DNA from: Candidatus Aenigmatarchaeota archaeon
Lineage (GTDB): Archaea > Aenigmatarchaeota > Aenigmatarchaeia > CG10238-14 > SCSR01
Length of the DNA stretch: 64,000 nt
NCBI GenBank assembly: GCA_038998625.1
Contig: JAWADS010000001.1
Span: forward strand, 30,110-94,109
Direction: 5' to 3'
The notes under the pieces were generated by a model. The model ran no database searches, was not told where the DNA came from, and saw nothing but the letters and a program-made list of their open reading frames with translations. Made by a program: the position numbers and the translations under genes. This document shows, piece by piece, positions 17,127-53,295 of this stretch (within the stretch, counting starts at the first letter, position 1; every line of letters begins with the position of its first letter).

Positions 17127-17246
17127 TGGGGTCGGAGGGATTCGAACCCTCGTTAACCGGTTGCTTCTTACTTCTCATAGCTCCATATACTGGAGCCGGT
17201 TTTCTAATCATGGAAGATGTCTTAGACCTAGCTAGACCACGACCCC
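17127..17246 (-). tRNA. tRNA-Trp(CCA) with two introns (~25/26: 17202-17218; 37/38: 17162-17189)
   Basis: GGGGTCG/CGACCCC acceptor stem, ACCGG/CCGGT anticodon stem, TTCGAAT T-loop; 75 nt after intron removal. Confidence 0.92.
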
Positions 17247-17347
17247 AGCCACCAGTGGGATTCGAACCCACAACCCCCTGATAACTTTCTGTCATTTTTC
17301 CAGTTATCAGGTACAAGTCAGGTGCTCTACCGTTGAGCTATGGTGGC
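17247..17347 (-). tRNA. tRNA-Thr(TGT) with 29-nt intron at 37/38 (17283-17311)
   Basis: GCCACCA/TGGTGGC acceptor stem, CCTGA/TCAGG anticodon stem, U73 discriminator. Confidence 0.92.
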
Positions 17348-22612: not shown

Positions 22613-23179
22613 ATGGTAGAAAAAGTTTGGGAAGGAGAATTAATTGAAAATAGAGTAATAATTTGGGATAGTCAAGCTGTTAATCTTTATGATGATTCTG
22701 GTTATGGTAAGCCCTTACCAGAGGACAAACCTGATAGAGTCGAATTAGATTTGGTGGAAGCCGCTTACTTATTAGAAAAAGGTAAGTTAAAAGTTTTTTT
22801 AAAGGAGGATAAGAAGAAAAGATATCTTAACTTTAATGAATTAATGGAAATAGGAGCAAAAAATATAAATCAGTTTCACCCTCAATTTATAGTTTTTCGC
22901 GACTTAAGAGAAAGAGGATATCTTGTTAAAACTGGTTATAAATTCGGTGCGCATTTTCGTGTTTATGATAGAGGAGTTAAATTGAAAAGAGGTCCAAAAG
23001 CTCCTCATGAACATACTAAATGGGTAGTGCATGCAGTACCAGAAGAGGCTGCCTTTTCATTACCTGAAATGTCTAGAGCAGTTAGATTAGCACACAATAT
23101 AAGAGCGACATTTTTATGGGCAGTTGTGGATAAAGAGTCAGATGTCACTTATTATCAAATAACTCGTGTCACACCTTAA
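22613..23179 (+). CDS. endA: tRNA-intron (splicing) endonuclease
   Basis: LDLVEAAYL, FRDLRERGYLVKTGYKFGAHFRVY, VDKESDVTYY. Confidence 0.95.
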   Translation: MVEKVWEGELIENRVIIWDSQAVNLYDDSGYGKPLPEDKPDRVELDLVEAAYLLEKGKLKVFLKEDKKKRYLNFNELMEIGAKNINQFHPQFIVFRDLRERGYLVKTGYKFGAHFRVYDRGVKLKRGPKAPHEHTKWVVHAVPEEAAFSLPEMSRAVRLAHNIRATFLWAVVDKESDVTYYQITRVTP

Positions 23180-29901: not shown

Positions 29902-31272
29902 ATGAGCTTAGAATATTTTTTTAATCCGCAAACAGTGGCAATAATAGGAGCTAGCCATAAGCCAGGAAAAATTGGTTATACAATTCTCGATAATTTTGTA
30001 AATGGTGGTTTTCAAGGCAAAGTTTATCCTGTAAATCCCAACACAGAGCCAATATTAAATTTAAAAGTTTACCCTTCCATTAAAAAGGTTCCCGATTATA
30101 TTGATTTGGCGGTAATTGCTGTAAAAGCTGAAATTGTTCCGAAAGTTTTGAAAGAATGCGTGGAGAAAAAAGTAAAGGCTGTAGTAATAATTTCCAGCGG
30201 ATTTTCTGAGATTGGCGAAAAGGGAAAGAAATTGGAAGAAAAATTAAGAAAAATTATAAAAAATAAATCGATTAGGGTAATTGGTCCAAATGTTATTGGT
30301 GTTTATGATTCTTCCACAAAAACAGACACCTTATTTTTATCAAGGGAAAAATTGAAAAGGCCAAAGGAAGGAGGTCTTTCTTTTATATCACAATCAGGAG
30401 CAGTAGGATCTACAATTTTAGACATCCTTGCAAAAGAAAATATGGGTATAGCTAAGTTTATTTCTTATGGCAATGCTATTGATGTAAACGAAGCTGATTT
30501 AATTGAATATCTTGCTAAAGATGAAAAAACAAAAGTTATCGCAGTTTATTTAGAAGGAATAAAAGCAGATGGTAAAAAATTTATGGAGGTTGTAAGGAAG
30601 GCTAACAAAGTAAAACCAATAATCTTTTTGAAATCTGGAAAAAGTTTTCGAGGAATTAAGGCTGCAGCTAGCCATACTGGTGTCTTGGCAGGAAGTGCAA
30701 GAATTTTTTCTGCAGCCCTAAGGCAAGTTAGAGCTTTGGAAGCAAAGGAGTGGGAAGAATTTTTTGATGCTTGCAAGGTTTTGAATTCTCAACCATTACC
30801 TAAAGGCAAGGAAGTGATTATCATAACAAATGGTGGAGGTTTCGGGGTTTTAGCTACGGATGAGGCAGAAAAATTAGGTTTAGAATTGAAAGATCTATCT
30901 AAAAATTTAAAGGAAAAATTGAAAAAAAATTTTCCTGAATATGTAAGTTTTAGCAACCCATTAGATTTAACAGGTGATACCACAACAGAAAGATATAAAA
31001 TTGCCTTAGAAAACTGCCTGAAGGAATTTGATGGAGCTATTGTAATAATTTTATTTCAAGTTCCAACTTTGGATGAAAGCATTGTTGATGTTGTGGCTGA
31101 AATGCAAAAATTCAAAAAACCAATAGTTTGCTGTACTGCTGGTGGCAAATACACTGAAAAAATGATGGAAAGATTAGAAGAGAAAGGTCTGCCAGTTTTT
31201 AGTTCTCCAGAAAGAGCAGTAAGAAGTTATAATTTTTTAGTAAGGAGATTTTTACAAACCAAAAAACGATAA
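29902..31272 (+). CDS. acdA: ADP-forming acetyl-CoA synthetase, alpha subunit
   Basis: VAIIGAS, SQSGA, SHTG phospho-His, NPLDLTGD. Confidence 0.92.
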   Translation: MSLEYFFNPQTVAIIGASHKPGKIGYTILDNFVNGGFQGKVYPVNPNTEPILNLKVYPSIKKVPDYIDLAVIAVKAEIVPKVLKECVEKKVKAVVIISSGFSEIGEKGKKLEEKLRKIIKNKSIRVIGPNVIGVYDSSTKTDTLFLSREKLKRPKEGGLSFISQSGAVGSTILDILAKENMGIAKFISYGNAIDVNEADLIEYLAKDEKTKVIAVYLEGIKADGKKFMEVVRKANKVKPIIFLKSGKSFRGIKAAASHTGVLAGSARIFSAALRQVRALEAKEWEEFFDACKVLNSQPLPKGKEVIIITNGGGFGVLATDEAEKLGLELKDLSKNLKEKLKKNFPEYVSFSNPLDLTGDTTTERYKIALENCLKEFDGAIVIILFQVPTLDESIVDVVAEMQKFKKPIVCCTAGGKYTEKMMERLEEKGLPVFSSPERAVRSYNFLVRRFLQTKKR

Positions 31273-34234: not shown

Positions 34235-34378
34235 TGCAGGGGGTGGGATTTGAACCCACGAAGGCACTAAGCCACGAGGTTTCTTATCTTCATCCTATCA
34301 GAGCTCAAGTAAACCTCTATCTTGAGCTTCGCGCAACTTTAAAATCTCGCGCCATTGACCAGGCTAGGCGACCCCTGC
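34235..34378 (-). tRNA. tRNA-Leu(CAA) with introns at 30/31 (34328-34345) and 37/38 (34281-34320)
   Basis: GCAGGGG/CCCCTGC acceptor stem, long variable arm, BHB cgcg-ag|a...cgcg-aa|g; 86 nt mature. Confidence 0.92.
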
Positions 34379-46474: not shown

Positions 46475-46591
46475 AGCCCCGTCGTCTAGCGGCCAAGGAC
46501 GCGAGGCTTTGGATATTTTATCTAAAGCTCTGATTTGATTTCGATGAAGAGAAGAAACCTCGAAACCGCAGTTCGAATCTGCGCGGGGCTA
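46475..46591 (+). tRNA. tRNA-Gln(TTG) with 44-nt intron at 37/38 (46513-46556)
   Basis: AGCCCCG/CGGGGCT (A1-U72), CGAGG/CCTCG, BHB cttt-gg|a...gaag-aa|a; 73 nt mature. Confidence 0.93.
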
Positions 46592-52485: not shown

Positions 52486-53258
52486 GATTTTCTTTGCTTT
52501 CTGTGTTCTCCTTTCTTTCTGATTAAATATCCAGCAGCAATTAATACGCTTCCAAAAATTGTAAATAATAGCAAGTAATTAATTATAGGCTCGAAAATTT
52601 TATCAATTAATTGAATGATTATGCTAGACAAACTAATTTCCGGTAAGGGCAGAAGCCTAGTTATTAAAAAATCTTTAAAATAGAAAAACAAGAAAAGGGG
52701 TGTAATAGAAAATATTATGTTCCAACCCAAAGATCTTAATCGTATGCTCCAACTTTCTGAGGATATTAAAATTAAAATAATACCAGCTATCGAACCAAAG
52801 ATTGAATAAAATATCATTGAATTGGAAAAGTTATTTCCATGGACAGAAAAAATAACTAAAAAACCTTCTATATCTCCTCTTAGAAGGCACTTTAAGAATG
52901 GACAATTATACTCTTTATAATAAACACTGTCAAAAACTTTTAGTGCAATTAATGTAGTTAAATCATTAGGTTTTGAAGATATGATATCTTTGCACTCCAA
53001 AGTTATATTGTATTGACTTACTTGAAATTCAATAACTTCTTTTTCTTTGCAACTCAAAACTAAAATTTCATGAAGTTTTTTTATTTGTTCAGAGCTTATC
53101 TGAGAAGAAATTTGTTGGTTTAAAATGGGCAATAAGCTATTTTTTAAGTTTTCATATTCAGTAAACTGGGCCAAAGAAATTGTTATAAAAAAGATAAATA
53201 AAAAAGTTGAGAACAAGAAACTACCAAAGGCTTTGCCCATTTTTCTAATAAAAGCCAT
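52482..53258 (-). CDS. Hypothetical multi-TM protein
   Basis: 4 TM helices and a Cys-containing loop. Confidence 0.7.
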   Translation of the reverse strand: MAFIRKMGKAFGSFLFSTFLFIFFITISLAQFTEYENLKNSLLPILNQQISSQISSEQIKKLHEILVLSCKEKEVIEFQVSQYNITLECKDIISSKPNDLTTLIALKVFDSVYYKEYNCPFLKCLLRGDIEGFLVIFSVHGNNFSNSMIFYSIFGSIAGIILILISSESWSIRLRSLGWNIIFSITPLFLFFYFKDFLITRLLPLPEISLSSIIIQLIDKIFEPIINYLLLFTIFGSVLIAAGYLIRKKGEHRKQRKS

Positions 53259-53295
53259 ATAAGTTTTTAAACAAGTTAGACTAATAAACTTATTT

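Follow-up and report, generated by a model that had tools for sequence, protein, structure and literature searches.

A probable self-directed, single-module box C/D-type guide in an intron of an archaeal tRNA-Leu(CAA) precursor

Ribose methylation of the wobble base (Cm34 or Um34, for 2'-O-methylated C or U at nucleotide (nt) 34) has been described for several archaeal tRNAs, with C34 of tRNA-Leu(CAA) among the targets predicted in Pyrococcus furiosus (PMC7668247). In Pyrococcus, four box C/D small RNAs (sRNAs) are predicted to target nt 34 of the Leu(CAA), Leu(UAA), Met and Trp tRNAs, one of them, sR50, being the tRNA-Trp intron itself (PMC7994747), and the sRNAs of Pyrobaculum target C34 of tRNA-Trp (sR26), a predicted U34 in tRNA-Gln (sR27) and others (PMC6009581). 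The tRNA-Trp intron guide has been termed 'a unique example', in an account that gives the median intron length as 65 nt (PMC4090602), and the only other tRNA-intron guide that we found described is a C/D-like RNA in the 66-nt intron that the elongator tRNA-Met of Nanoarchaeum equitans contains, as presented in PMC3491384. Here, we describe a 40-nt intron in a tRNA-Leu(CAA) gene of a Candidatus Aenigmatarchaeota archaeon, found in a 64,000-nt stretch of DNA (hereafter the window; positions 30,110 to 94,109 of contig JAWADS010000001.1, assembly GCA_038998625.1), which carries a conserved, covarying module of one antisense element and one box pair and is probably a self-directed, single-module box C/D-type guide for 2'-O-methylation of wobble base C34.

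Like the euryarchaeal pre-tRNA-Trp(CCA) guide of Haloferax volcanii and Pyrococcus (sR50), the module sits in an intron at position 37/38, is antisense to its own anticodon loop and places C34 opposite the fifth guide position counted from box D' (N+5), and in both systems the guide fold and the splice fold compete (PMC7994747, PMC4090602). The tRNA-Trp guide, as described in those accounts, has complete C/D and C'/D' motifs and two guides (for Cm34 and Um39), whereas the tRNA-Leu(CAA) intron offers, within 40 nt, a single kink-loop (K-loop) and a single guide of 8 nt, and lacks a terminal C/D motif. The former type is known in tRNA-Trp, whereas the module described here occurs in tRNA-Leu(CAA) and at least six other tRNAs, and the lineage's own tRNA-Trp intron is of the single-module form, unlike its Haloferax and Pyrococcus counterparts. 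The likeness to Nanoarchaeum lies in a box-bearing, non-Trp tRNA intron of a DPANN archaeon, and tRNA-Met(CAU) bears the module here too; the Nanoarchaeum RNA is reported with a box C, a box D and a GC hairpin, whereas here there are D' and C' boxes only and the target is evident from complementarity. With the trans-acting sRNAs of Pyrococcus and Pyrobaculum the module shares the same tRNAs, the same nt 34 and the same N+5 logic, but those sRNAs are described as free-standing bipartite genes, whereas here the precursor of the target tRNA itself contains the guide. One box motif and one guide also make up the engineered 'hemi' box C/D ribonucleoprotein (Hardin and Batey 2006, PMC1635284), an artificial particle with a terminal C/D kink-turn (K-turn) and stem that is reported there as active, at high salt, but non-specific; unlike it, the present module occurs in nature, is conserved, relies on a K-loop and joins guide to target in the same molecule.

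What distinguishes the locus is the form of its probable intron-encoded box C/D guide, in other tRNAs, with a single K-loop and eight bases. A literature search in which subscription journals were thinly covered returned no account of guides in Leu or Gln introns, or in tRNA introns of Aenigmarchaeota. Multi-intron tRNA genes with introns at non-canonical positions such as 30/31, and the spread of introns between tRNA genes, were reportedly described for the Thermoproteales by Sugahara (2008) and Fujishima (2010); we know of no guide modules reported from those introns.

The tRNA-Leu(CAA) gene and the module in its second intron

The genome to which the window belongs is small (0.47 Mb, 31% G+C, 19 contigs), and the window is archaeal, with a signal recognition particle RNA of archaeal type. 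The tRNA-Leu(CAA) gene (window 34235-34378, minus strand, 144 nt) matches Rfam RF00005 at 35.7 bits against a gathering score of 29, and goes undetected by ARAGORN under default settings; with introns allowed it is mislabelled Lys(ttt). Removal of two introns in silico leaves an 86-nt cloverleaf that ARAGORN calls tRNA-Leu(caa), a class II tRNA whose discriminator, read by hand, is A. Its anticodon CAA (34322-34324, minus strand, from the sequence and from ARAGORN on the spliced product) places C34 at window position 34324. The sequence-only reading that preceded this analysis had recognised the 40-nt intron, whose sequence is as given there and which lies inside the Rfam tRNA match; the part of the gene structure that it overlooked is a further intron of 18 nt at position 30/31 (34328-34345, minus strand, read from the sequence). 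This intron 1 has the core of a canonical bulge-helix-bulge, CGCG paired with CGCG between 3-nt bulges AGA and AAG, and in one relative (L005) the exon sequence is uninterrupted at the same site. Other choices of exon, such as GAGGU as the 5' strand of the anticodon stem, gave no valid anticodon loop and were rejected.

Intron 2 occupies the canonical 37/38 position (34281-34320, minus strand), has homologues in relatives and reads AUA-GAGGUUU-A-CUUGAGCU-CUGA-UAGGAU-GAAGA-UAAGAA. Its bulge-helix-bulge is of the relaxed form, in which UAAG (34283-34286, minus strand) is the partner of nt 32-35 in a central helix with three of its four pairs, C34 facing A. The guide CUUGAGCU (34302-34309, minus strand) pairs at 8/8 positions with AGCUCAAG (34321-34328, minus strand), a target strand made up of nt 31-37 and the last base of intron 1 in place of nt 30. 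Counting back from CUGA, the fifth guide base, the G at 34306, faces C34, which bears out the register proposed in the earlier reading. In the primary transcript the last guide base pairs with the last base of intron 1 and not with exon position 30; once intron 1 has been removed, G30 takes that place and the pair becomes G.U. When intron 2 was shuffled 200,000 times, an 8/8 match with NNGA directly behind it came up 74 times.

Immediately 3' of the guide stand a box D'-like CUGA (34298-34301) and then a box C'-like GAUGAAGA (34287-34294), both on the minus strand and read from the sequence; the same two elements had been named before as a box pair, and they form a pair of the D'/C' type. Set against AGUC of CUGA, GAAG can form G.A, A.G, A-U and G-C, giving a K-loop with the 6-nt loop UAGGAU. 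The intron thus has an internal D'/C' pair able to form a K-loop with tandem G.A, and a guide directly 5' of D' that makes a Watson-Crick pair at N+5 with a plausible target, both of which characterise canonical archaeal C/D sRNAs. The guide hairpin belongs to the minimum-energy fold of the 144-nt transcript and, because it shares nt 32-35 with the splice fold, the two folds are mutually exclusive. Rfam, applied at permissive thresholds over both introns, returned the tRNA model and otherwise matches at chance level only.

The proteins expected of a canonical C/D system are likewise encoded and intact, namely fibrillarin (228 amino acids, 240 bits), Nop5 (347 amino acids, 231 bits) and L7Ae (109 bits), the coordinates for the three together being C4:14359-14637 and C4:27716-29065. 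A tRNA splicing endonuclease domain (PF01974, 90.4 bits) lies within the window at 22874-23152 on the plus strand (contig C1 of the host genome, G000, at 52983-53261) and is the enzyme expected to remove both introns, and an RtcB ligase (PF01139, 471 bits) is also encoded. The RtcB domain is split within one open frame of 985 amino acids (G000:C12:6941-9724, minus strand), profile positions 1-51 and 49-426 standing about 1.4 kb apart, which looks like an intein insertion.

Conservation and covariation among relatives

Sixty relatives, from seven families of one order, were searched with the Leu and Gln genes and returned homologous introns. A parser that took the best 8-mer against nt 30-37 was applied to 49 Leu and Gln rows, a row passing with at least 7/8 pairs together with NNGA and UGA. 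Three of the 49 were without a CAA or UAA loop (a Leu(UAG) whose intron has 13 nt, and two further Leu copies), and four failed the filter (L029 through mis-parsing; L052 for want of a K-loop; L058, whose D' is CUAA; and L064, which has no UGA). In the passing rows, N+5 is complementary to nt 34 without exception (42/42: 17 CAA:G, 7 UAA:A and 18 UUG:A). Their D' box is UUGA in 20, CUGA in 19, CAGA in 2 and CGGA in 1, and the C' box is most often UGAUGA (13) or UGAAGA (11) among several rarer forms, with GA and UGA conserved. The two box halves also covary, position 1 of D' and position 6 of C' in the K-loop stem being C:G in 20 rows, U:A in 12 and U:G in 8; in both of the two non-pairs the 'first UGA' rule had chosen a UGA of the loop, and a GAUGAAGA stands further on.

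A second, broader comparison (alignment A1) brings together 56 anticodon arms with introns, 26 from Leu, 19 from Gln, 7 from Met and 4 from Trp. Rows were chosen by an exactly closing anticodon stem, an intron with NNGA...UGA and a downstream T-loop, guide complementarity not being used and failing rows being dropped beforehand; in three rows with a second intron the range was corrected by hand. In the guide:target helix 93.5% of cells pair; column shuffles give 79.8 +/- 1.1, with 0/500 reaching the observed value, and pairing falls to 19-61% when the partners are slid. As the aligned sequences are kin, the shuffle figures overstate independence, although the guides of the four tRNA families are unrelated to one another. 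At nt 34 itself the pair is C:G in 28 rows and U:A in 28, with none unpaired, and two-sided changes occur at each of nt 34, 35 and 36. For comparison, 98.6% of cells are paired in the anticodon stem and 80.5% in the central helix of the splice motif, where 32:G and 33:A each hold in 56/56 rows while nt 34 is paired in 29 and unpaired in 27, the latter being the C34 tRNAs. The sequence-only reading had proposed aligning the Leu and Gln introns across relatives, and on that alignment its expectation that the guide follows the anticodon is upheld.

Beyond these relatives, a free-base pattern in which nt 34 may be C or U and N+5 may be G or A was run over one genome per prokaryote species and found at least 119 loci. 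Among the matches listed, all 67 titled Aenigmatarchaeota, 'uncultured archaeon' or 'archaeon' are concordant (44 C:G, 23 U:A), whereas the 52 others (bacteria, one Nitrososphaeraceae and one Bathyarchaeota) divide into 27 concordant and 25 discordant. In a phylum sample of 371 genomes the pattern was found in 60 and a reversed-pattern control in 0. Only two matching genomes lie outside the window's order, as judged by a pattern strict enough that variants elsewhere could escape it, and within the order matches are distributed by family as 37/69 (f1), 3/3 (f2), 1/1 (f3), 15/19 (f5), 1/1 (f6), 0/23 (f4) and 0/1 (f7). One Leu(UAA) gene read in family f4 (L218) has introns and no K-loop.

A further element of intron 2 behaves differently. 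GAGGUUU (34311-34317, minus strand) duplicates the anticodon stem's 5' strand and adds UUU, and is complementary, as the earlier reading had noticed, to AAACCUC (34276-34282), a stretch that runs from the final two bases of the intron through A38 to nt 39-42 and so takes in the 3' splice site and the 3' anticodon strand. With intron 1 taken out, the minimum-energy fold includes the GAGGUUU:AAACCUC helix. Elements of this type occur in 7 of the 26 Leu rows, namely the window and six rows of one other family, where the form is xAGGUUU or xGGGUUU with 6-7 of 7 places paired, and in every case they repeat the 5' strand of that stem; at the first position the window has G, facing C42, and the other family has C, facing G42, which amounts to one two-sided change. 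The element is real and has probably been under selection. In combination with the guide hairpin, the helix would form an H-type pseudoknot with the 3' splice site inside it. Candidate roles include holding the anticodon stem open, as first proposed and as the complementarity might just allow, keeping splicing from proceeding, or lengthening the guide where the target is already spliced.

The module in other tRNA precursors

Six other tRNAs of the same genome carry the module. In tRNA-Gln(UUG) (window 46475-46591, plus strand; intron 46513-46556) the guide CUAAAGCU (46522-46529) is followed by CUGA (46530-46533) and GAUGAAGA (46543-46550), all on the plus strand, with the A at N+5 opposite U34; the intron runs CUAAAGCU-CUGA, 12 nt, GAAGA and GAAGAA. 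The tRNA-Trp(CCA) gene (window 17127-17246, minus strand) has two introns, and in the one at 37/38 (17162-17189) the guide AUGGAGCU (17179-17186, minus strand) precedes AUGA-GAAGUAA-GAAG, with G at N+5 opposite C34. Elsewhere in the genome, intron modules are found in tRNA-Leu(UAA) (C4:18725-18870; CUUAAGCU-CAGA-...-GAUGAAGAA), in tRNA-Met(CAU) (C13:1784-1899; AUGAGCU-UUGA-...-AUGAUAA) and in tRNA-Arg(UCU) (C2:45544-45674; AGAAGGU-UUGA-...-GAUGAAA), where N+5 faces U34, C34 and U34, respectively. In tRNA-Ser(UGA) (C3:32738-32843) the module, GACUCAAGGU-CUGA-...-GAUGAUGAAGA, belongs to the 5' leader, again with N+5 facing U34. The guides differ among these paralogues, and the register that sets N+5 against nt 34 is constant in all seven tRNAs, so the claim that the guide tracks the anticodon within one genome, made at first from the Leu and Gln introns, is true of Leu(CAA), Leu(UAA), Gln, Met, Trp, Arg(UCU) and Ser(UGA) alike. 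The module was not found in tRNA-Leu(UAG), tRNA-Arg(CCU), tRNA-Glu(CUC) or the parsed four-codon-box tRNAs of the genome; most of the tRNAs that bear it read purine-ending codons of split codon boxes, Ser(UGA) being the exception. Among relatives, the Met(CAU) module is present in 7/7 loci (this genome and six relatives) and the Trp(CCA) module in 4/4 relatives, there in a fuller form, xUGGAGCx-(U/A/C)UGA-loop-GAUGAA.

Two features of this set bear on what the pairing is for. The box-proximal end of the helix is fixed and the far end, towards the splice site, varies between 6 and 10 base pairs (bp), a pattern expected under the N+5 rule but not required of a hairpin with a purely structural role. 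The Ser(UGA) guide, moreover, lies outside any intron yet keeps the same register and is conserved, so intron structure alone does not explain the pairing. Its partners are nt 30-37 and two intron bases beyond, with U34 at N+5, and it is kept in 10/14 loci among those listed (relatives L190-L194 and L197-L200). The leader stretch itself, GACUCAAGGU-CUGA-loop-GAUGAUGA, stands just upstream of the tRNA at G000:C3:32844-32885 on the minus strand, and in a tRNA-Ser(CGA) of one relative (L202) the guide is in the intron rather than the leader. In three relatives (L193, L194 and L198) the 37/38 intron of the tRNA-Ser(UGA) precursor has a second K-loop, GGCUUGACU-CUGA-UUA-AUGAUGA, which together with the leader module puts two box pairs in one precursor.

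The Gln intron shares its frame with the Leu intron, and the arrangement CUAAAGCU-CUGA-...-GAUGAAGA-GAAGAA noted in the earlier reading is present as described. The transfer of introns between tRNA genes that was suggested on this ground may have taken place, but the elements in common (xUGA, GAUGA, RAAGAA) would be demanded by a K-loop and a splice motif anyway and do not discriminate. The module of each tRNA is old and inherited within one order. In 11 of 12 genomes the Leu and Gln introns start D' with the same base; these genomes represent few lineages, and the agreement may reflect a shared protein preference, concerted evolution or descent.

Broader scans proved too loose to be of use. 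A genome-wide search for an inverted 7-mer with NNGA gave 178 matches, a search for guide and K-loop hit 16/29 tRNA loci but also 1016/2000 random windows, and a K-loop scan outside long open frames gave 154 matches. Several other loci are recorded here as observations in their own right. In tRNA-Thr(UGU) (window 17247-17347, minus strand), a 37/38 intron of about 30 nt starts C-CUGA-UAACUGGAAAAA-UGACAGA, a box-like pair without an antisense stretch to its own anticodon loop. The tRNA-Glu(CUC) gene (G000:C8:19393-19492, plus strand) has a D-loop intron, AUGAGCCCUUAAAGCUCAGGAAAAU, with a GAGC/GCUC hairpin between AUGA and CAGGA. Directly before it, with no spacer, is a tRNA-like gene (G000:C8:19307-19392, plus strand) with a long extra arm, a 6-bp CGAAGC/GCUUCG stem around the 9-nt loop UAGCUGAAG, an Rfam score of only 18.9 bits and an ARAGORN call of Phe(aaa) with a 4-nt intron. 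The 16S rRNA (L188; G000:C13:95-180, minus strand) contains an insert of about 82 nt after GGAUUAGAUACCCCGGUA, with the hairpin CUAGGGA[GUAUCUU-CUGA-UUAA-GAUGAAGA-AAUU]UCCCUAG, in which the stretch before CUGA pairs over 6 bp with AGAUAC of the adjacent 5' exon and the U of GAUAC falls at N+5. By its sequence this insert may be an rRNA-intron version of the self-guide idea.

A proposed mechanism, its rivals and what it would mean

A module that is real, conserved and covarying is most likely, to judge from its sequence and register, a self-directed ribose-methylation guide for the wobble base. We infer the following course of events. In the primary transcript the antisense element would pair with nt 30/31-37, and CUGA and GAAG would fold into a K-loop to be bound by L7Ae; Nop5 and fibrillarin would then be recruited, and the ribose of the base opposite the fifth guide position, C34, would be methylated. 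The RNA would refold, UAAG close to the intron's 3' end taking nt 32-35 as its partner to form the relaxed bulge-helix-bulge, and the endonuclease and ligase would remove the intron. Because the two folds exclude each other, methylation would precede splicing, and the guide would act on its own molecule rather than on another copy. The same module would serve tRNA-Leu(UAA), tRNA-Gln(UUG), tRNA-Met(CAU), tRNA-Trp(CCA) and tRNA-Arg(UCU) and, from the 5' leader, tRNA-Ser(UGA).

Several properties of the locus weigh against this proposal, the missing half of a canonical guide among them. The bipartite, pseudo-symmetric architecture of two motifs is absent, each precursor having one module. Neither the intron nor the exons have a C box 5' of the guide or a D box 3' of C', so there is no terminal C/D K-turn with a closing stem, and a second guide aimed at U39 with four boxes, as in the Trp intron, is absent as well, only UAAGAA and then the exon following the C' box. 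A second box motif for tRNA-Leu(CAA) was sought in intron 1, leader and trailer, and no conserved one emerged: CUGA is present in 0/19 readable leaders of relatives and UGA[U/A]G in 4/21 readable trailers, at varying places and distances, and the UGAUGU in the trailer of the window's gene is not conserved among relatives. According to the account of PMC1635284, natural archaeal guides are always bipartite, the two-motif architecture being absolutely conserved, and single-motif complexes in vitro are weakly active, or active but non-specific. Such a deficit could be compensated by tethering guide and target in one RNA, or by reciprocal pairing of two precursors. The guide is moreover only 7-8 nt long. 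Archaeal C/D guides usually have 10-12 nt. The C' box here is UGAAGA against the consensus UGAUGA, and some relatives are degenerate (L028, with about 5 bp in cis; L052, with no K-loop; L058, with CUAA as D'). Finally, the nearest-neighbour energy of the intron 2 splice fold is -25.8 kcal/mol and that of the hairpin fold -40.6 kcal/mol, a disadvantage so large that refolding would need help.

An alternative that we regard as unlikely, though deserving of attention, is that the guide acts in trans, the excised and perhaps circularised intron, or the intron of one precursor, targeting another pre-tRNA or the spliced tRNA-Leu. A precedent is the Haloferax pre-tRNA-Trp guide, first thought to act in cis and later described as trans-acting (PMC7994747, PMC4090602). 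In some relatives the spacer has 0-3 nt (L018, 2 nt; L028, 0 nt), too few for a full 8-bp hairpin in cis, but most spacers (3-15 nt) permit one, and for the present transcript the minimum-energy prediction contains the cis hairpin. GAGG repeats the partner strand of nt 39-42, and GAGGUUU-A-CUUGAGCU could, on the spliced tRNA, form a longer guide with a bulge by pairing with nt 30-37 and 39-42; in tRNA-Ser(UGA), by contrast, the leader guide pairs with two intron bases beyond nt 37, so that its substrate is the precursor, and a guide of 8 nt is the kind that benefits most from intramolecular action.

Less probable again is a role without methyl transfer, in which hairpin and K-loop make up a fold bound by L7Ae that covers the anticodon loop and either sets the timing of splicing or acts as its chaperone. 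Competition of the guide hairpin and splice motif for nt 32-35 fits such a role, as does the prospect of a GAGGUUU:AAACCUC helix with the 3' splice site hidden inside, and the single-motif design is, in the in vitro work reported in PMC1635284, poor for specific methylation. A structural hairpin, however, need not hold nt 34 five pairs from the box, and yet the box-side end is fixed; the leader-borne Ser(UGA) module is unlinked to an intron fold; and the tRNAs that bear the module match the set with ribose methylation at nt 34, as far as the accounts cited above define that set. The genome, of 0.47 Mb, has besides retained fibrillarin and Nop5, and canonical C/D sRNAs with two motifs, sought there by regular expression in a scan that is not proof of their absence, are represented by one weak candidate (C9:236); precursor-borne modules may make up most of the organism's guides. 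That ordinary anticodon-intron pairing has merely met an A/G-rich sequence resembling boxes is hardly credible. A genome of 31% G+C is AT-rich, and the loose scan for guide, NNGA and UGA matches 1016/2000 random windows of 200 nt, but chance is contradicted by the shuffle test, by the covariation, by the concordance of listed matches (67/67 against 27/52) and by the reversed pattern, found in none of 371 genomes.

A wider version of the self-directed guide, which we put forward tentatively and consider rather doubtful as a whole, is that this order of Aenigmarchaeota runs wobble ribose methylation through natural single-K-loop ('hemi') guides in the precursor of each target, breaking the bipartite rule. 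One L7Ae-Nop5-fibrillarin unit might suffice when tethered, or two precursors might pair reciprocally, each guide on the other's anticodon loop, into a symmetric particle with two motifs. Methylation would in that case be a checkpoint that licenses splicing, as the exclusive guide and splice folds, and the capacity of GAGGUUU to bury the 3' splice site, would allow.

In practical terms, introns of this kind make standard tRNA finders miss or mislabel genes and so distort the tRNA inventories of DPANN genomes. For the organism, the finding is of a whole set of tRNAs with guides of their own (Leu(CAA), Leu(UAA), Gln, Met, Trp, Arg(UCU) and Ser(UGA)), each with one box pair and eight bases. If these guides work, they would be a natural test of the minimal box C/D particle, for which both motifs are reported to be required for specificity in vitro, would give a reason why very small genomes retain such introns, and would tie tRNA modification to the order of splicing.

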